Source: an uncultured Gammaproteobacteria bacterium
Lineage (GTDB): Bacteria > Patescibacteriota > Patescibacteriia > UBA1558 > GWA2-36-10
Assembly: GCA_964478385.1 (NCBI GenBank)
Contig: CAYZIE010000001.1
Span: forward strand, 1 to 51,784
Length of the DNA: 51,784 bases
Reading direction: 5' to 3'
Below are positions 18,645 through 39,355 of the stretch, in pieces (position 1 is the first letter of the stretch; the number at the start of each line of letters is the position of its first letter). Under the pieces are notes generated by a model. It was given only the letters and a program-made list of their open reading frames with translations. It was not told the DNA's origin and searched no databases. A program made the position numbers and the translations under genes.

Positions 18645-18890
18645 AAAAAGACCCCCATTAATCTTTATTGTTGTCATTAAGATGTTTTGCTGACTAACAG
18701 GGGTCTAGGAAGCAGATTATCTCTGCTTATTTGGTTTGGCCGCAATGAGTAGTTAAAGGTTATCCGGTCTCCACTTGATATAACTGGCTAAGATCGTCAT
18801 CTTAGGCGTTACTATCATGACTCAGAAGCTATGACGCCATAGCTGTCCCAGTAACTATTATGTCTCAAAGCGACCAATTTTAATGTTCGG
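18643..18890 (-). ncRNA. Unclassified structured small RNA gene (about 245 nt) with its own promoter and terminator
   Basis: GC-rich block in an AT-rich intergenic region with no ORF. In plus coordinates, a long-range helix pairs 18852-18877 with 18736-18755. There are 7-bp hairpins at 18827-18844, 18788-18805 and 18710-18728. A terminal stem AGACCCC/GGGGTCT plus U7 lies at 18643-18706. Confidence 0.6.
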
Positions 18891-18896
18891 AATAAT

Positions 18897-18925
18897 ATTG
18901 TATTGTATATTAAAAACATTGTCAA
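18897..18925 (-). promoter_or_regulatory. Near-consensus sigma70 promoter for the small RNA (TTGACA-17-TACAAT)
   Basis: On the minus strand, TTGACA is at 18925-18920, the spacer is 17 nt, and TACAAT is at 18902-18897. Confidence 0.65.
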
Positions 18926-18997
18926 GTCTTTTTTATTACCAGTCTAATCCTTTATTTCCTAATTTAAAAGTGGTATAATAGTTATATAAATAATAAT

Positions 18998-21798: not shown

Positions 21799-23349
21799 AT
21801 GAATAATATACCATTAGTTTTAATTATTTTAGATGGTTGGGGGATAAGCAAGGAAAGTAAGGGTAATGCTATATTCTTAGCTAAAACTCCTGTAGTTGAT
21901 AATATATGTAAAAAGTATTCTCATACTCATTTGCACGCTTCTGGCCATTATGTTGGTTTACCAGATGGACAACCAGGTAATTCTGAAGCTGGTCATATGA
22001 ATATTGGTGCTGGTAGAGTAATCCCTCAAGATTCTATTATAATAAACAAAAGTATTAAGAATAGTACTTTTTTTAAGAATCCAGCTTTTTTACAAACAGC
22101 ACAACATATTACTGATAATAATTCGGATATTCATTTAATGGGATTATTATCAGAAAATCAAAGTCCTCATTCAGATAATGATCATATAGTAGCTTTAATT
22201 GATTTTTTTACTAATAATAGTAAACAAAATATCTATCTTCATTTATTTACAGATGGTCGTGATAGTCCTATGTTTTCAGCTTTAAAAACTTTAGATAAGT
22301 ATAAAAAAGTTTTTGATAATAAAAGAGTTAAGATAGCTAGTATAATGGGTCGTTTCTATGCTATGGACAGAAAAAGAGATTGGCAAAGAACTAAATTAAC
22401 TTATGAAGCTATGACAGAAGGAAAGGGAGTAACAGTTACTAATGGTATAGAAGCTGTTAATCAAGCATACAACAGGGGAGAGAGTGATGAATTTATACTA
22501 CCAACAGTTATAGTTGATAAGAATAAAAAACCAATTGGTCCAATAAATGATAATGATGCTATAGTATTCTTTAATTTAAGATCGGATAGAGCTAGACAAT
22601 TGAGTAAAACTTTTGTACAGAAAAATTTTGAAAAAGATAATAAAGATTCTTTTAAAAGAAAAAAGAAAGTTAAAAATTTATTCTTTACTGCTTTAACTGA
22701 TTTTGGCACAGACTTAGGTCATATTTTAACAGCTTATCCAGCTATAGATATACCAGAATCTTTAACTTCTTGTTTAAAAGAATATAGACAATTATATATT
22801 GCTGAATCAGAAAAGTATTCTCATGTTACTTATTTCTTTAACGGGGGTTATGATCAACCAGTAGTAAAAGAAGAAAGAATATCTATTCCTTCTAAAAATA
22901 TTAGTACTTATGATCAAAAACCAAGTATGAGTGTTAAATTAGTTACTAATAAAGTAATTAAAGCTATACAAGATAAAAAATTTGATTTTATAACCCTAAA
23001 CTATGCTAGTCCTGATATGATAGGTCATACTGGTAATATTGAAGCAGCTATTAAAGCTATTGAAATAGTAGATAAAGAAATTGGTAAAATTATTTCTGAA
23101 GTATCTAAAAGAAATGGTACTGTTATAATAACAGCTGATCATGGAAATGTTGAAGAAATGATTAATAATGAAACAGGAGAAGTTATTACAAAACACTCTA
23201 CTAATTTAGTCCCTTTTGCTATAATAAATAAACATAAATATAAATTAGGAAAAATAGGTAAACTAGCTGATATAGCTCCAACTATATTAGATATTCTAGA
23301 TATAAAAAAGCCTAAATCAATGACAGGTAAATCTTTAATTAAAAAATAA
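21799..23349 (+). CDS. gpmI: 2,3-bisphosphoglycerate-independent phosphoglycerate mutase, paralogue 1
   Basis: LDGWG, GNSEAGH (catalytic Ser), DGRD, RFYAMDRKRDW, EKYSHVTYFFNGG, PDMIGHTG and TADHGN. The usual SDGGVHS segment is replaced by SENQSPHS. Confidence 0.85.
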   Translation: MNNIPLVLIILDGWGISKESKGNAIFLAKTPVVDNICKKYSHTHLHASGHYVGLPDGQPGNSEAGHMNIGAGRVIPQDSIIINKSIKNSTFFKNPAFLQTAQHITDNNSDIHLMGLLSENQSPHSDNDHIVALIDFFTNNSKQNIYLHLFTDGRDSPMFSALKTLDKYKKVFDNKRVKIASIMGRFYAMDRKRDWQRTKLTYEAMTEGKGVTVTNGIEAVNQAYNRGESDEFILPTVIVDKNKKPIGPINDNDAIVFFNLRSDRARQLSKTFVQKNFEKDNKDSFKRKKKVKNLFFTALTDFGTDLGHILTAYPAIDIPESLTSCLKEYRQLYIAESEKYSHVTYFFNGGYDQPVVKEERISIPSKNISTYDQKPSMSVKLVTNKVIKAIQDKKFDFITLNYASPDMIGHTGNIEAAIKAIEIVDKEIGKIISEVSKRNGTVIITADHGNVEEMINNETGEVITKHSTNLVPFAIINKHKYKLGKIGKLADIAPTILDILDIKKPKSMTGKSLIKK

Positions 23350-24927
23350 ATGAATAGACCTAAACCAGTTGTATTAATAGTATTAGATGGGTTTGGCATT
23401 GCTCCTTCTTCAAGAGCTAATGCTATTTCTTTGGCTAAAACACCAAACTTTGATAAATATGCTTCTAATTATCCTATTATGCCTTTATCAGCGAGTGGTG
23501 AAGCTGTTGGTTTACCATGGGGAGAAATGGGTAACTCTCAAGTTGGTCATCTTTCTTTAGGATCAGGATTAATACCATATCAATACTTACCTAGAATTAC
23601 TAAATCTATTATTGAAAAAGATTTTTTTAAGAATGAAGCATTATTAAAAGCATGTAATCATGTAAAAGAAAAAAATAGTGCTTTACATATTATTGGTTTA
23701 GTTAGTGATGGAGGCATTCATAGTTATAATGAACATTTATACTCAATATTAGAATTAGTTAAAAAAGAAAAAATAGAAAAAGTATATATTCATGCTTTTT
23801 TAGATGGTAGAGATACTATATACAATGGAGGATTAAAATATATTTCTAAATTACAAGATAAGATAAAGCAAATAGGCATTGGTAGTATAGCTAGTTTAGC
23901 TGGTCGTTTTTATGCTATGGATAGAGATCATAATTGGGATAGAACAGAATTAGCATACAATGCATTAATAAAAGGTGAGTCTAAGGAGAAGTATAAAGAT
24001 CCATTAAAAGCTGTACAAAAATCTTATGATAGTTCAGTATATGATGAACAATTATTACCTGTAGTTATTACTGATGATAATAATAATCCTAAAGGTATTA
24101 TACAAGATAATGATTCTGTTGTATTTTTTAATTTCAGAGCAGATAGAGCTAGACAATTAACAAAAGCATTGTCAGTACCTGGTTTTGAAAAGTTTGAACA
24201 AAAGTATTATAAAAACTTACTAATGGTTACTATGACAGAGTATGAAAAAGATTTACCTGTTACAGTAGCATTTAAACCACTATCAATAGAAGTTCCTTTA
24301 GCTAAAGTAATATCTGATGCTGGTTTAAAACAATTACATATTTCTGAAACTAATAAATATGCTCATGTTACTTATTTCTTTAATGGAGGAAAAGAAACTA
24401 TTTTTGAAGGAGAAGATAGGGTATTAGTGCCATCTCCTAGTATTCCTTCTTTTGATCAAAAACCAGCTATGTCTGCTCGTGAGACTACAGCTAAAACAAT
24501 TCAGTTTATAAAAGAAGGGTTATATGATTTTATAGTGATAAATTATGCTAATCCAGATATGGTTGGTCATACTGGTAATATTAAAGCTACTATTAAAGCT
24601 ATAGAAATACTTGATCAATTAGTAGGAGAATTAGTTGATACAACGCTATCTTATGACGGAGTTGTTTTAATTACAGCTGATCATGGAAATGCTGAAAAGA
24701 TGTATGATTTACAAACTGGAGTAATAGATAAAGAACATACTAATAATCCTGTTCCTTTATTTATAGTAGGGCAACAATTTGCTGGAAAAAGTGTTTTAAC
24801 AGGTGTGTCTGGTACTGATTTAAGTAATATTACTCCTTTTGGAGTTTTATCAGATGTAGCTCCAACTATTTTAAAAATAATTGGATTAAAAAAACCACCT
24901 AGTATGACTGGTAGTTCTTTGGTTTAA
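23350..24927 (+). CDS. gpmI: 2,3-bisphosphoglycerate-independent phosphoglycerate mutase, paralogue 2
   Basis: LDGFG, GNSQVGH, SDGGIHS, DGRD, RFYAMDRDHNW, NKYAHVTYFFNGG, PDMVGHTG and TADHGN. Confidence 0.9.
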   Translation: MNRPKPVVLIVLDGFGIAPSSRANAISLAKTPNFDKYASNYPIMPLSASGEAVGLPWGEMGNSQVGHLSLGSGLIPYQYLPRITKSIIEKDFFKNEALLKACNHVKEKNSALHIIGLVSDGGIHSYNEHLYSILELVKKEKIEKVYIHAFLDGRDTIYNGGLKYISKLQDKIKQIGIGSIASLAGRFYAMDRDHNWDRTELAYNALIKGESKEKYKDPLKAVQKSYDSSVYDEQLLPVVITDDNNNPKGIIQDNDSVVFFNFRADRARQLTKALSVPGFEKFEQKYYKNLLMVTMTEYEKDLPVTVAFKPLSIEVPLAKVISDAGLKQLHISETNKYAHVTYFFNGGKETIFEGEDRVLVPSPSIPSFDQKPAMSARETTAKTIQFIKEGLYDFIVINYANPDMVGHTGNIKATIKAIEILDQLVGELVDTTLSYDGVVLITADHGNAEKMYDLQTGVIDKEHTNNPVPLFIVGQQFAGKSVLTGVSGTDLSNITPFGVLSDVAPTILKIIGLKKPPSMTGSSLV

Positions 24928-35599: not shown

Positions 35600-36862
35600 A
35601 TGAGTAAAATATTACATATAGTATTAAAATATCTATCTAAAAAGGTTATAAACAAGTATAATCCCAAGATTATAGGTATAACTGGTAGTGTTGGTAAAAC
35701 TTCTACAAAAGAAGCTATTTTTTCAGTCTTAAGTTCTAATTTTAATATTAGGAGAAATATTAAAAACTATAATAATGAAATAGGCGTTCCTTTAACTATA
35801 TTAAATAAAGAATCAGGACAAAGAAATATATTTAAATGGTTAAGAATAATATTATCTTCATTAAAATTAATAATATTAAAAGATAAAGAATATCCAGATA
35901 TTCTGATACTAGAAATGGGAGCAGATAAAAAAGGGGATATTGATTATTTGACTAGTATAACTAAACCAGATATTGCTGTTTTAACAGCTATTGGACATAG
36001 TCATATTGAAAACTTTGGTAGTATTAATAATATACTTAAAGAAAAGTTAAGTATCACCAAAAGATTAAATAAAGAAGATTGGGTGGTATTAAATAATGAT
36101 GATAAACTATTATATTCTAGTAAAGATAAACTAAAAAGTAATATTAAAACTTTTGGGCAAAAAGAAGATAGTGATATATATATTAAAGATATAAAGATTA
36201 TTGAAAAAGATAATACATATGGAACTACTTTTAAAATAAGATATAAAGGATCTATAGTTCCAGTATTTTTACCTAATGTTTTAGGATGGCAACATGCTCA
36301 ATCTGTAGCCTGTGCTTGCAGTATTGCTTTAATCTTAGATATGAATTTAGTAGATATAGCTAAAGATTTAATGAAGTATATACCAGCTAAAGGTAGAACT
36401 AATTTAATTAAAGGTGTTAAGAATTCATATATCATAGATGATACATACAATGCTTCTCCACAGTCTTCTGAACTTGCTTTAAATATATTATCTGAAATAC
36501 CTAGTTCAGGTAGAAAAATTGTTGTATTTGGAGATATGTTAGAATTAGGAGATATTAGTGAAGAAAGTCATAGGAATGTAGGTAAAATAGTTAAACAACT
36601 TAATATTGATTATTTATTTGTTATTGGTGAAAGATCAAGAGATATAGCTAGGGGTGCTAAAGAATTAGGTATGTATGAAGATCATATTTTTCATTTTCCT
36701 TTTACTACTGAAGCAGGTATCTTTTTACAAGAAAGAATTAAAGAAAATGATATTATTTTAGTTAAAGGTTCAAGAGGTTCTAAAATGGAACAAGTTGTTT
36801 ATGAAATTATGGCTAAACCTTGGAAAGCAGATGAATTATTAGTAGCTAGGGTTGATAAATAA
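35600..36862 (+). CDS. murF: UDP-N-acetylmuramoyl-tripeptide--D-alanyl-D-alanine ligase
   Basis: GITGSVGKTSTKE P-loop, DDTYNASPQS and FGDMLELG. Confidence 0.85.
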   Translation: MSKILHIVLKYLSKKVINKYNPKIIGITGSVGKTSTKEAIFSVLSSNFNIRRNIKNYNNEIGVPLTILNKESGQRNIFKWLRIILSSLKLIILKDKEYPDILILEMGADKKGDIDYLTSITKPDIAVLTAIGHSHIENFGSINNILKEKLSITKRLNKEDWVVLNNDDKLLYSSKDKLKSNIKTFGQKEDSDIYIKDIKIIEKDNTYGTTFKIRYKGSIVPVFLPNVLGWQHAQSVACACSIALILDMNLVDIAKDLMKYIPAKGRTNLIKGVKNSYIIDDTYNASPQSSELALNILSEIPSSGRKIVVFGDMLELGDISEESHRNVGKIVKQLNIDYLFVIGERSRDIARGAKELGMYEDHIFHFPFTTEAGIFLQERIKENDIILVKGSRGSKMEQVVYEIMAKPWKADELLVARVDK

Positions 36863-36888
36863 TTATATTTTTGTTATTAATATTTAAT

Positions 36889-36963
36889 GGCCCTATCGTC
36901 TAGTGGTTAGGACACCAGGTTCTCATCCTGGTAACCGGGGTTCGATTCCCCGTAGGGTCACCA
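36889..36963 (+). tRNA. tRNA-Glu (anticodon CTC), CCA encoded
   Basis: Hand-folded cloverleaf. Acceptor GGCCCTA/TAGGGTC, anticodon stem CCAGG/CCTGG with loop TTCTCAT, T arm CGGGG-TTCGATT-CCCCG. 75 nt. Confidence 0.95.
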
Positions 36964-36968
36964 ATACT

Positions 36969-37511
36969 ATGGATATTAAAAAATATAAAAGAATAAATAT
37001 AATAGGTACAAGTGGTTGTGGGAAATCTACTATAGCTAAGAAATTAGCTAAATTGTTAAATTATGAATATATAGAAATGGATAGTATATTTTGGGGTCCT
37101 AATTGGGAAGAATCAAATTATGATTCTTTTTTTAAAAAATTAGAAAAAGAATTAAAAAAAGAAAAGTGGGTATTAGATGGTAATTATACAAAAAGTATAC
37201 CTTTAAAATGGAAGTATACGGATTTAGTTATATGGTTAGATTATTCATTTTTAAGAAATTTTTTTCAATCTTTTACTAGAGCTATAAAAAGATTAATAAC
37301 AAGAGAGGTATTATGGTCTAGTAGTGGTAATAAAGAAACATTAAAAGGTTTTTTTAGTAAAGAATCTATAGTACTGCATATGATAAAAAGTTATAACAGT
37401 AATAAAAAGAAGTATAATTTATATATAAAAGATAGTAATTTTTCTCATATTAAATTTATAAAACTAAAAAATCCTAAACAAGTAAAACAGTTTTTAAATA
37501 ATTTAAAGTAA
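36969..37511 (+). CDS. P-loop NTPase/kinase (adenylate-kinase-like, topology-modulation FlaR-like family)
   Basis: Start moved to the ATG at 36969 because the ORF-track start at 36903 runs through tRNA-Glu. Walker A is IIGTSGCGKSTIAKKL. Confidence 0.7.
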   Translation: MDIKKYKRINIIGTSGCGKSTIAKKLAKLLNYEYIEMDSIFWGPNWEESNYDSFFKKLEKELKKEKWVLDGNYTKSIPLKWKYTDLVIWLDYSFLRNFFQSFTRAIKRLITREVLWSSSGNKETLKGFFSKESIVLHMIKSYNSNKKKYNLYIKDSNFSHIKFIKLKNPKQVKQFLNNLK

Positions 37512-37514
37512 AAG

Positions 37515-37546
37515 AAAACCCCCAGTAGACGAATCTAGTGGGGGTT
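37515..37546. terminator. Bidirectional terminator (P-loop kinase gene / 112-aa gene)
   Basis: CCCCCAGTAG (37519-37528) pairs with CTAGTGGGGG (37535-37544) with one mismatch. The A-run before it gives a U-run on the minus strand. Confidence 0.7.
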
Positions 37547-37550
37547 GTAG

Positions 37551-37889
37551 TTACGAGGTGCAGTGGAGTTCAATCTGCTTCTGCAGATCGGAGATCGCTC
37601 CCTGGTCGTCCAGGCTATCAATCTCTTCCAGAACCATGTTCAGGTCACTCACAGGCTTTGCGAAGGCAAACGTGTTACAATCCATCACCGTGAAACTCAC
37701 AAGGCACCACGCGTTGTTGAGAGCACGCTTCGTGTCCTTCGGCCAGTCACGATGTGGGAATATGAACATCCCTTCGTGATTAGCCACGTAGCGCACCTGA
37801 CCATCCTTGAGCTGCCTCTTGAAAAACAGCAACTCGATGACAGTCGTGATCTGATCCCGTTCTTCGTTCTTGTTCTTGGGCTCAGACAT
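37551..37889 (-). CDS. 112-aa soluble protein of unknown function, foreign composition (about 52% G+C)
   Basis: AGGAGG at 37896-37901 lies 6 nt before the ATG. Third codon positions are G/C-rich and Lys is almost always AAG, unlike the rest of the window. No TM segment and no family recognised. Confidence 0.7.
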   Translation of the reverse strand: MSEPKNKNEERDQITTVIELLFFKRQLKDGQVRYVANHEGMFIFPHRDWPKDTKRALNNAWCLVSFTVMDCNTFAFAKPVSDLNMVLEEIDSLDDQGAISDLQKQIELHCTS

Positions 37890-37919
37890 CTTATTCCTCC
37901 TTGTTCAGGTTCTGTGCTC

Positions 37920-37936
37920 ATCACCAACTTGGTGAT
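37920..37936. promoter_or_regulatory. Perfect 17-nt palindrome ATCACCAACTTGGTGAT at the predicted transcript start (operator or 5' hairpin)
   Basis: 8-bp arms around a central C, located between the -10 box (37942-37947) and the SD (37896-37901). Confidence 0.55.
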
Positions 37937-37941
37937 ATATT

Positions 37942-37970
37942 ATATTAGCATATATTAAATATTTTGTCAA
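37942..37970 (-). promoter_or_regulatory. Strong promoter P1 (TTGACA-17-TGcTAATAT)
   Basis: On the minus strand, TTGACA is at 37970-37965, the spacer is 17 nt, and the extended -10 TGC-TAATAT ends at 37942. Confidence 0.65.
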
Positions 37971-37986
37971 TAGGGGAGTATATACT

Positions 37987-38026
37987 AAAAGAAAAGCCCC
38001 TTACTATGTAAATGGTTAAGGGGCTT
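37987..38026 (-). terminator. Intrinsic terminator of the 155-aa gene
   Basis: AAGCCCCTTA (37994-38003) pairs with TAAGGGGCTT (38017-38026). A U-run follows on the minus strand. Confidence 0.7.
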
Positions 38027-38035
38027 GTGAGAAGG

Positions 38036-38503
38036 TTATAAAACCTCCATAAGTACTGGTTTGTCAAAGAAGGTTGCTTCAGCTTTTTGATAGCTACTTT
38101 CAATATTGACAGTAGATATAACTTTACCTGAGTCTCTTTCAATAACCTCAATGACATACCTTCCTGTAGCAATTATACAGTGTCTGCTTTTCTGTATTGA
38201 ATCAAGATGTTTTCCATTCTTAAAAATATTCAAATACAGATTCTTTCTATCTCCCCAAGTAATTTTTGCTCTTGCTTTTTGATCGCTGATGGGATCAAAC
38301 TGCATAATAAGTATTTGTCCGTTTTGAAGAATTGCTGTTGATGTAATGCTTTTTGGTAAAGGCTTTACAAAAACTGCTGTTGGATTATCCCGATGTAGCA
38401 TGTGATTTCCAATCAACATACTGAAAAGGGAAAATATTACAATTGCTATTAATGCAATTGTGGCTATTACGGACACAATTTTTCGTTTCTCTGACTTTCT
38501 CAT
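38036..38503 (-). CDS. Membrane-anchored 155-aa protein, unknown function
   Basis: Start set at the ATG at 38503 (MRKSEKRK...), which is preceded by AGGAGGAG; the ORF-track start is 38548. One TM segment (IVSVIATIALIAIVIFSLFSML) followed by about 110 aa. Confidence 0.65.
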   Translation of the reverse strand: MRKSEKRKIVSVIATIALIAIVIFSLFSMLIGNHMLHRDNPTAVFVKPLPKSITSTAILQNGQILIMQFDPISDQKARAKITWGDRKNLYLNIFKNGKHLDSIQKSRHCIIATGRYVIEVIERDSGKVISTVNIESSYQKAEATFFDKPVLMEVL

Positions 38504-38548
38504 TTCTCCTCCTCGTTTAAATGAGTTTAGTGTTAATGAACTATACAC

Positions 38549-38577
38549 ATAGTAGCATATTTTAGTTATTTTGTCAA
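38549..38577 (-). promoter_or_regulatory. Strong promoter P2 (TTGACA-17-TGcTACTAT)
   Basis: On the minus strand, TTGACA is at 38577-38572 and the -10 TACTAT at 38554-38549, preceded by TGC. 25 of 29 positions are identical to P1. Confidence 0.65.
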
Positions 38578-38582
38578 GAGTA

Positions 38583-38615
38583 AAGAAAAACCCTTGTAAT
38601 ACTTTACAAGGGTTT
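38583..38615 (-). terminator. Intrinsic terminator of the 89-aa gene
   Basis: AAACCCTTGTAA (38588-38599), loop tact, TTACAAGGGTTT (38604-38615). A U-run follows on the minus strand. Confidence 0.75.
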
Positions 38616-38623
38616 TATTTTCT

Positions 38624-38893
38624 TTATTTTTCAAGATTTAGATATACGTTTGAATCTTTAAATCCTCTAGAAATTGAGTATATTATATTTAATATACCTA
38701 AAAGGATTATCCATGGTTGTTCTTTTAAATACAACCAAGATCTTGTTATGCTATCTTGACCAATTTGGGGATTGTATGAGTTACCTGTATCAGCTATGAA
38801 TGCAAGAGCCATAATTGATGCAATCATGTATAATATACATAATATCCCCGTTAGCGATGTAGTTAGTTGAATTTCACTAATTAATCTCTTCAT
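38624..38893 (-). CDS. 89-aa two-TM membrane protein, unknown function
   Basis: AAGGAG lies 8 nt upstream of the ATG. Hydrophobic segments are LTGILCILYMIASIMALAFI and PWIILLGILNIIYSI. Confidence 0.6.
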   Translation of the reverse strand: MKRLISEIQLTTSLTGILCILYMIASIMALAFIADTGNSYNPQIGQDSITRSWLYLKEQPWIILLGILNIIYSISRGFKDSNVYLNLEK

Positions 38894-38932
38894 TATTGTT
38901 TCTCCTTATGTTATTAATGAACAATACTATAT

Positions 38933-38961
38933 ATTATATCATATATTGTGTATCTTGTCAA
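38933..38961 (-). promoter_or_regulatory. Strong promoter P3 (TTGACA-17-TGaTATAAT)
   Basis: On the minus strand, TTGACA is at 38961-38956 and TATAAT at 38938-38933, preceded by TGA. Confidence 0.65.
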
Positions 38962-38980
38962 TGATAGTTAATATATTATG

Positions 38981-39009
38981 TTGACATTATATTTATTATT
39001 TGTTAGTAT
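38981..39009 (+). promoter_or_regulatory. rplU promoter (TTGACA-17-TAGTAT)
   Basis: TTGACA at 38981-38986 and TAGTAT at 39004-39009. Confidence 0.55.
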
Positions 39010-39037
39010 AGAAGCTGTTATTATTTTTAAAAAATTT

Positions 39038-39355
39038 ATGTTTGCTGTAATTAAGACAGGAGGAAAACAATATCAAGTAGCTAAAGGTGATACTTTAGTT
39101 GTAGAAAAATTACCTGAAGCTAAGGGTGGTAGGATTGTATTTGATAAAGTATTGTTATTGGCTGATGATAAAGATAATATTACTATTGGTAAACCATATC
39201 TTTCTAATGTTAAGGTTGAAGCTAATTTAGTTAAAAACTTTAAAGAAAAAAAGATAGATGTATTAAAGTATAAGAATAAGACAAGGTATAGAAAGAAATA
39301 TGGTCATCGTCAACAAAAGACTGAAGTAAAGATAGATAAAATTATTTCTAAATAA
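39038..39355 (+). CDS. rplU: 50S ribosomal protein L21
   Basis: MFAVIKTGGKQYQV is the canonical L21 N terminus, so I prefer the ATG at 39038 over the ORF-track start at 38978. Confidence 0.92.
   Translation: MFAVIKTGGKQYQVAKGDTLVVEKLPEAKGGRIVFDKVLLLADDKDNITIGKPYLSNVKVEANLVKNFKEKKIDVLKYKNKTRYRKKYGHRQQKTEVKIDKIISK

Follow-up and report, generated by a model that had tools for sequence, protein, structure and literature searches.

A GC-rich orphan gene at a conserved locus of an AT-rich uncultured bacterium, with evidence for a maintained and highly structured transcript

Overview

The 51,784-nucleotide (nt) stretch of contig CAYZIE010000001.1 analysed here (the window, 51.8 kb) belongs to the genome of an uncultured bacterium with about 26% G+C. 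On its minus strand lies an open reading frame (ORF) of 112 amino acids (aa) with about twice that G+C content, hereafter the GC-rich gene. We propose, with a probability of about 0.45, that it produces a strongly transcribed, nuclease-resistant messenger RNA (mRNA) within a fast-diverging cassette of small genes. The ORF evolves as a coding sequence at a conserved locus, and its high G+C at third codon positions (GC3) is maintained between alleles. Its RNA shows an excess of structure that is partly conserved, and a palindrome at its predicted 5' end behaves as a hairpin.

Composition and codon usage

The GC-rich gene is the sole large G+C island of the window, peaking at 0.56 in 120-nt windows; the other peaks reach at most 0.48, and two of them are transfer RNA (tRNA) genes. 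G+C is 0.51 for the coding sequence (CDS) and 0.52 for the 300 nt from 37550 to 37849, versus 0.264 for the whole window. At the first, second and third codon positions (GC1, GC2 and GC3) it amounts to 0.53, 0.31 and 0.70, where the 38 window ORFs of at least 150 aa average 0.387, 0.291 and 0.114, with a GC3 standard deviation of 0.04 and a maximum of 0.258. The compositional deviation is mainly synonymous. Lysine is encoded by eight AAG and no AAA codons (AAA makes up 82% in the genome), glutamine by six CAG and no CAA (90% in the genome), and leucine never by TTA, which serves 74% of genomic leucines and none of the 56 leucine codons of the family members. In all alleles the inverted preference extends to Leu, Lys, Gln, Glu, Ile and Val, and C-ending codons are favoured too in NNY pairs. 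The G+C block coincides with the transcript, with values of 0.21 in the promoter, 0.45 in the untranslated 5' region (5' UTR), 0.51 in the CDS, 0.50 in the terminator and 0.13 downstream.

An earlier reading of this region, made from the letters alone (the sequence-only reading), had described an ORF of about 52% G+C in an AT-rich genome, lysine codons dominated by AAG in inversion of host usage, and several other open frames; all three descriptions hold. The open frames include an antisense ORF of 131 aa, which we rejected as a gene because its frame is broken in the relative L008. That reading had also asked about native genes of the same composition, and none of comparable G+C occurs within the window. 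Nor is the island a chimeric insertion, for which it had likewise allowed: sequence and junctions are identical (100%) in more than 10 independently assembled contigs, which rules out an assembly chimera.

The inverted usage might itself be the regulatory device. The rarest codons of the genome would make the gene depend on minor tRNAs such as tRNA-Glu(CUC), with slow or condition-dependent expression, as a mirror image of the Streptomyces bldA/TTA system or as a starvation-robust use of isoacceptors. The inversion for six amino acids in all alleles and the presence of a tRNA-Glu(CUC) gene at 36889-36963 are in keeping with this idea, but C-ending NNY codons are favoured although one tRNA reads both members of such a pair, the 5' UTR and the terminator are GC-rich too, and the excess of structure over codon-preserving shuffles is left unexplained. 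We consider codon-level regulation improbable. The rplU gene has an equally good promoter and a GC3 of only 0.15, so high expression or general translational selection alone does not demand these codons.

Coding status and predicted protein

Five alleles in two clades were compared, including those of the window, L001 and L008 and the distant L010 and L011. Judged from its pattern of divergence, the GC-rich ORF is a real protein-coding gene, because third-position substitutions dominate (11, 10 and 37 at the three codon positions between the window and L001), the ratio of nonsynonymous to synonymous divergence (dN/dS) is low (about 0.10 between the window and L001, about 0.15 between the window and L008), and the frame is kept in five alleles of 112 to 227 aa. 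Indels between alleles are whole codons, and an internal duplication of the domain is in frame. A lack of protein-level conservation, which the sequence-only reading had named as a sign against the gene, was therefore not what we found.

The protein is acidic (isoelectric point of about 5), hydrophilic and devoid of membrane segments. It is predicted to consist of a helix preceded by one β-rich domain of about 55 aa, with two such units in the distant relatives. The most conserved peptide is ANHEGMFIFPHRDW (EGMFIFPHRD and variants). No family match was found in Pfam, PHROGs, PADLOC or the PDB sequence profile, and tblastn against phages and plasmids gave no match, in line with the failure of the sequence-only reading to recognise a family. 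AlphaFold2 models were unusable, with predicted local distance difference test (pLDDT) scores of 46 from a 3-sequence and 42 from a 5-sequence alignment. The gene product is an orphan protein.

Conservation of the locus and origin of the high G+C

The identical protein occurs on five short contigs, and that of the L001 allele is 83% identical. An allele of 148 aa (L002, L008, L012-L021) is 61% identical, and the distant proteins of L010 and L011, of 225 and 227 aa, contain the domain twice. A word-indexed search combined with a hidden Markov model scan of 1.84 billion representative proteins found 5 family members, in AT-rich contexts only. No homologue in a GC-rich context was found among these proteins, GTDB genomes, phages and plasmids, a negative to be read with the points that protein databases may under-sample the family and that gene callers skip the ORF on long contigs. 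Metagenome contigs searched with a peptide pattern and a degenerate DNA pattern, and viral contigs searched with the same DNA pattern, gave no match. The scan of genome contigs yielded one true locus, L008; a second match, L009, was spurious, with a stop inside the frame. When the upstream membrane protein was used as a profile, no lineages beyond the same four came up. On each of the five long window-type contigs that span the locus (L022-L026), the JGI gene calls lack the ORF and leave the interval from the 170-aa gene to the kinase gene empty; on short contigs the ORF is called. Composition-trained gene finders miss the ORF, and the family is probably under-represented in protein databases.

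The gene order in L008, a metagenome-assembled genome that bears the label 'uncultured Gammaproteobacteria', and in L012 is dnaB, ybaB, recR, rplU, the membrane-protein gene, the GC-rich gene and the kinase gene. The GC-rich gene lies between rplU and the kinase gene in L008, L012-L021 and L001. GC3 in the five alleles is 0.70, 0.61, 0.58, 0.82 and 0.77, compared with 0.114 in the genome, and this high range (0.58-0.82) persists although synonymous sites are saturated. Under a two-state model of neutral decay, with the flanking synonymous divergence of 0.24-0.47, an ancestral GC3 of 0.9 to more than 1 would be required to leave 0.70 today.

The sequence-only reading had offered two origins, a recent transfer from a GC-rich donor or an unusual constraint, and the second is the better supported. 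In the first, the gene would have been acquired recently and later fitted with a local promoter and ribosome-binding site (RBS), which would account for the extreme compositional deviation and the orphan status. The cassette is moreover variable, lies about 600 bp from a tRNA-Glu gene, and adjoins a tRNA-like 3' half in L010, and at differing sites the window has G/C where L001 has A/T at 19 positions and the reverse at 6, which could reflect amelioration in L001. The same features (deviation in G+C and codons, no family, a variable region near a tRNA gene) are shared with horizontally acquired ORFans. Unlike those, the GC-rich gene sits at the same, conserved locus in relatives, keeps its GC3 in every allele past saturating divergence, and is without donor homologues in the collections above; no integrase, transposase, att-type repeat or flanking direct repeat was found within 36800-39100. 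Two genes of the cassette retain very different shares of excess GC3, unlike neutral decay: the upstream gene has 0.25-0.34 where the GC-rich gene has 0.58-0.70, and 0.60 where it has 0.8 in the L010/L011 clade. The excess of RNA structure would also go unexplained. Of four marks of a recent island we found only the atypical composition; the other three (absence from the same locus in relatives, donor homologues, and mobility genes or repeats) were not observed. The data do not support a recent import from a GC-rich donor, which we consider improbable. Constraint is preferred because the locus is conserved, GC3 is kept, the homologues found lie in AT-rich contexts only, mobility features were not found and RNA structure is in excess. 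The abnormal G+C is best read as a feature kept along the whole transcript, between +1 and the terminator, rather than as a scar of recent import.

Predicted RNA structure

We compared the minimum free energy (MFE) of each CDS with that of synonymous-codon shuffles preserving both protein and codon usage. The five family alleles gave z-scores of -2.6, -5.6, -5.5, -3.9 and -7.6 and the upstream cassette genes -2.3 to -6.3, whereas twelve control genes of the window averaged about -0.8 (range +1.2 to -3.9). Whole transcripts reached z = -4.75 and -8.84 against dinucleotide shuffles. RNAalifold applied to three alleles returned a chain of local hairpins, with 109 local pairs in 16 helices and 91% of cells paired. 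Twelve pairs have changed on both sides, compared with 4.3 ± 1.6 in shuffles (0 of 500 reach 12) and 1-2 in slid controls, a covariation signal that comes from three sequences and a consensus derived from the same alignment and is supportive, not decisive. Compensatory changes in L001 also fall in the terminator stem (helix 15). A 50-nt segment on the codons of the conserved peptide forms a hairpin of -18 to -27 kcal/mol in 7 of 7 domain copies, with a different pairing register in the L010/L011 clade. This pattern suggests that pairing itself has been selected, to a greater degree than any single fixed fold. Between the clades, the CDS is less well conserved than the non-coding ends, which are the core of the terminator and the promoter together with the 5' arm TATCACCA.

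Rfam 15 at gathering thresholds reported only three tRNAs in the whole window, and at E up to 10 only noise between 37400 and 38100 (best sub-threshold E at least 0.3). ARAGORN found no transfer-messenger RNA in the window.

Such a transcript could be bifunctional, that is, the structured RNA would itself act, as a riboregulator, a sponge or the RNA of a ribonucleoprotein, and also encode a protein that perhaps binds its own hairpins. The structure z-scores, the compensatory changes, the better conservation of the non-coding ends and the strong hairpin on the motif codons of every domain copy all speak for this possibility. Yet the ORF takes up about 80% of the transcript, its mostly third-position changes and dN/dS of 0.1-0.15 are those of a protein, the hairpin registers differ between clades, and neither an Rfam family nor a target or partner was identified; we regard a bifunctional RNA as unlikely. 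The dual-function RNAs S. aureus RNAIII/hld, SgrS/SgrT and B. subtilis SR1/SR1P resemble the GC-rich gene in being structured, independently transcribed RNAs with a translated ORF. They differ from it in that their ORF is a small part of the RNA and their targets are known.

The palindrome at the predicted 5' end

The sequence-only reading had reported a perfect 17-nt palindrome at the predicted 5' end. It is exact (plus strand ATCACCAACTTGGTGAT, coding strand ATCACCAAGTTGGTGAT) and folds as a hairpin within the predicted transcript. Palindromes of this 6-5-6 form, with one mismatch allowed, are expected 0.02 times per window, and one occurs. On the coding strand the window allele reads ATCACC-AAGTT-GGTGAT and L001 ATCACC-ATTCG-GGTGAT, while L008 has TTACC-AATAA-GGTAG with a closing G-U pair. 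L010 has ATCACC-N26-GGTGAT, its stem extended inward, and L011 is the same with one arm mismatch. This hairpin is helix 1 of the three-allele consensus, where it is 100% paired and shows one change from C-G to U-A; loop and spacing vary.

Two interpretations had been left side by side, a repressor operator and a 5' stem-loop. A perfect dyad directly downstream of the -10 hexamer is what a dimeric repressor controlling the gene would require, and the ATCACC/GGTGAT arms are found in 4 of 5 alleles. The arms are, however, 5 nt apart in the window, L001 and L008 and 26 nt apart in L010 and L011, L008 pairs only by way of G-U and L011 has a mismatched arm. The further copies of the motif and the cognate repressor that had been suggested as a check did not appear: no second copy was found in the 51.8-kb window, none of the neighbouring genes showed a DNA-binding domain, and the cassette is free of regulator genes. 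An operator is highly improbable. A 5'-terminal RNA stem-loop, at a start site that is itself predicted, fits better because arm spacing is variable and wobble pairing occurs, and because pairing is kept while the loop varies.

In bacterial 16S ribosomal RNA (rRNA), AUCACC lies in the 3' tail just 5' of the anti-Shine-Dalgarno core. The 3' arm of the hairpin, GGUGAU in the RNA (37920-37925), is complementary to this AUCACC. The 5' arm may mimic the 16S rRNA tail, whether by coincidence or as a ribosome-related feature of the leader.

Expression signals

The promoter of the GC-rich gene is kept in all five alleles, as is a Shine-Dalgarno sequence (GAGGAGG or AAGGAGG) at the same position, 6-7 nt ahead of the ATG. 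The terminator abuts the stop codon of the convergent kinase gene, and its motif CCCCC..TAGATT..GGGGG is found in all alleles. The exact pattern TTGACA-N14-TGnTAnnnT occurs 4 times in the 51.8-kb window, against a chance expectation of 0.11. These sites are the three cassette promoters and the divergent rplU promoter, all within about 1.1 kb (37942-39009), and the three cassette promoters form a 32-nt repeat family (D1) with 72-84% identity. The signals had been read before as host-style (TTGACA-17-TGcTAATAT and AGGAGG-6-ATG), which agrees with the same exact pattern at rplU. Coordinates are collected in Table 1.

Table 1. Positions of the GC-rich gene, its signals and the other cassette units in the window.
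Feature	Position	Strand	Description
Promoter of the GC-rich gene	37942-37970	minus	TTGACA 37970-37965, 17 nt, TAATAT 37947-37942; extended -10 TG 37950-37949
17-nt palindrome	37920-37936	minus	starts at predicted +1, 6-7 nt after the -10 hexamer
Shine-Dalgarno AAGGAGG	37896-37902	minus	6 nt ahead of ATG at 37889
GC-rich CDS	37551-37889	minus	112 aa and stop; MSEPKNKNEERDQ...HCTS; orphan, acidic, soluble; GC3 0.70
Internal hairpin	37741-37785	minus	about -22 kcal/mol over 50 nt; on codons of ANHEGMFIFPHRDW; helices 7 and 8
Intrinsic terminator	37511-37544	minus	CCCCCACTAGA-TTCG-TCTACTGGGGG, then T tract
Unit 1	38587-38961	minus	12/12 consensus promoter 38933-38961; ORF 38624-38893; terminator 38587-38616
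Unit 2	38036-38577	minus	own promoter 38549-38577; CDS 38036-38503
Unit 2 terminator	37987-38024	minus	read from sequence; equivalent hairpin in L001, L008 and L010

The cassette and its divergence

The GC-rich gene is the last of three consecutive promoter-ORF-terminator units that form a cassette on the minus strand (38961-37511), between rplU and a P-loop kinase gene. The ORF of unit 1 encodes 89 aa with two hydrophobic segments; it is present in the window and in L003 and wholly absent from the L008 allele, where the stretch compared was L008 9215-9320. As far as the available sequences indicate, the number of units in the cassette varies among relatives. Unit 2 encodes a fast-evolving protein of 155 aa that bears an N-terminal membrane anchor. 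The GC3 of this unit, 0.25, falls at the upper end of the genome range.

The flanks of L008 are 90-92% identical to the window at the nucleotide level, and this identity breaks sharply at 38899 and 37542. Between these points identity falls to 70% in the GC-rich gene, no DNA alignment could be made for the membrane-protein gene, and unit 1 is missing. Nei-Gojobori estimates between the window and L008 give synonymous divergence (dS) of 0.24-0.47 and nonsynonymous divergence (dN) of 0.027-0.068 for the flanking genes, dS of about 2.2 (saturated) and dN of 0.33 for the GC-rich gene, and dS of about 4 (saturated) and dN of 0.50 for the membrane-protein gene. Both dN and dS in the cassette exceed the flanking values about 10-fold. 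Across at least 10 assemblies, each allele is invariant (100% identity, 0 single-nucleotide polymorphisms, SNPs), and both alleles co-occur in JGI sample 3300009008. On these comparisons the cassette versions are old, discrete alleles, because SNPs are absent within each and both are found together in one sample. Ongoing local hypermutation was rejected on the same absence of SNPs.

The high G+C could in principle be a by-product of recombination, if a hot spot swapped divergent alleles and GC-biased gene conversion raised the G+C. The tenfold divergence and the sharp identity breaks, the two alleles in one sample, short contigs that break at the cassette edges, and the raised GC3 of the neighbouring cassette gene would suit such a process. 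Against it stand both the boundaries and the size of the effect: the G+C block tracks the transcript, the promoter lies within the cassette yet has 21% G+C, the excess structure is not accounted for, and GC3 of 0.70 versus 0.11 goes, to our knowledge, far beyond the effects reported for GC-biased gene conversion in bacteria. This explanation is quite improbable.

Contigs L003-L007 and L022-L027 come from water-column metagenomes of JGI and ENA. Many of the short contigs that bear the gene end at the cassette edges, among them L003, L004 and L006, at window positions 38882, 37512 and 37486. Such ends would be expected from the co-assembly of strains with common flanks and different cassettes.

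GAG makes up 14% of glutamate codons in the genome. The tRNA-Glu(CUC) gene (36889-36963) is about 600 bp away from the GC-rich gene, which is rich in GAG and AAG. An ORF of 202 aa read from a GTG at 36903 overlaps this tRNA gene; the most likely start of the kinase is MDIKKYKR (36969), for a length of 180 aa that matches L008. At positions 1575-1634 of L010, on the opposite strand and about 150 bp from the cassette end, we observed an apparent tRNA 3' half cut by the contig end; ARAGORN called no tRNA there.

Other features of the window

An intergenic patch with a G+C of 0.42-0.46 lies on the minus strand at 18645-18930, behind a TTGACA-17-TACAAT promoter. The RNA of about 230 nt folds with z = -5.7 and ends in a GACCCC...GGGGGUCUUUUU terminator. 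Rfam assigned no family to this region, the best match being MicX (E = 0.043; 19 bits, where the gathering score is 75), and we list it as a candidate unannotated structured small RNA. At 21799-24927 we observed two full-length tandem paralogues of cofactor-independent phosphoglycerate mutase (516 and 525 aa), whose scores clear the TIGR01307 cut-off by a wide margin.

Discussion

We propose that selection recoded the ORF to G/C-ending codons, which would yield an AU-poor mRNA made of a chain of stable hairpins. The 5'-terminal stem-loop would block decay that depends on the 5' end, and 3' exonucleases would be stopped by the hairpin of the terminator. Enzymes of the RNase E/Y type would find few sites in the paired, AU-poor body, while the ribosomal-protein-grade promoter and the full-length Shine-Dalgarno sequence would support heavy expression; in combination these features may produce a long-lived, abundant message. 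High expression and a long half-life would go with nuclease resistance as the selected benefit. As summarised in PMC3997798, RNase E and RNase Y cut AU-rich single-stranded RNA, and 5'-terminal stem-loops protect bacterial mRNAs, a point for which the primary papers are in its reference list. For engineered mRNAs, PMC6883848 describes a longer functional half-life with more CDS structure.

Several points weigh against this explanation. The GC-rich gene, with dN and dS about 10 times those of its flanks, evolves fast for an abundant protein; slow evolution is the usual case for highly expressed genes. The family as a whole has no single conserved structure, as registers differ between the two clades. 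The predicted paired fraction of the CDS is only modestly higher than in controls (0.62-0.72 versus 0.53-0.63), and one control gene also has z = -3.9. The RBS region is not clearly more open than in control genes, a comparison that does not discriminate. The comparisons rest on only five alleles from two clades, and the covariation on three of them. Nuclease resistance as the benefit is conjecture.

Among known systems, the 5'-stem-loop stabilisers of the E. coli ompA and papA and B. subtilis aprE leaders are alike in having a hairpin at the extreme 5' end, followed by a strong RBS, and in keeping the structure while the loop varies. They lack the G/C recoding of the whole CDS seen here, and the start site here is a predicted one. 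The engineered superfolder CDSs, as far as PMC6883848 and PMC8940940 describe them, are alike in CDS-wide pairing through synonymous codons and in a strong translation start; those mRNAs were designed, and studied in eukaryotic cells or in solution, whereas the present case would be a natural, bacterial one with a presumed long half-life. We infer that the GC-rich gene combines the type of the 5'-stem-loop-stabilised mRNA with a naturally over-structured CDS.

In AT-rich genomes, G+C-rich islands mark structural RNA genes, and this has been used to screen for non-coding RNAs of hyperthermophiles. Those islands are similar in their sharp G+C boundaries set by a promoter and a terminator and in their strong predicted folding. 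They are unlike the present island, which is protein-coding and matches no Rfam family. We know of no described bacterial gene with its whole ORF in the rarest codons of the genome, a conserved locus and an excess of RNA structure, and a search of the literature for such a gene found no precedent.

A wider reading is that RNA-level selection overrode the extreme AT bias across the whole gene, to give an armoured or bifunctional mRNA with a conserved hairpin chain, one hairpin of which lies on the motif codons. The fold would then be as much a product as the protein, which might bind it. We put this forward tentatively and consider it rather doubtful.

Compositional outliers are routinely filed as recent transfers. 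Here the deviation is inherited at a fixed locus, together with RNA structure that is in excess and partly conserved, and a GC3 of 0.70 against 0.11 is among the largest deviations one could expect. As a practical warning, genes skipped by composition-trained finders, and any wider family, are probably under-represented in protein databases. If the model of expression and half-life is true, the GC-rich gene would represent the natural, bacterial equivalent of the highly structured mRNAs made by engineering. It would likewise be a clear instance in which RNA-level selection dominates synonymous codon choice along an entire gene.

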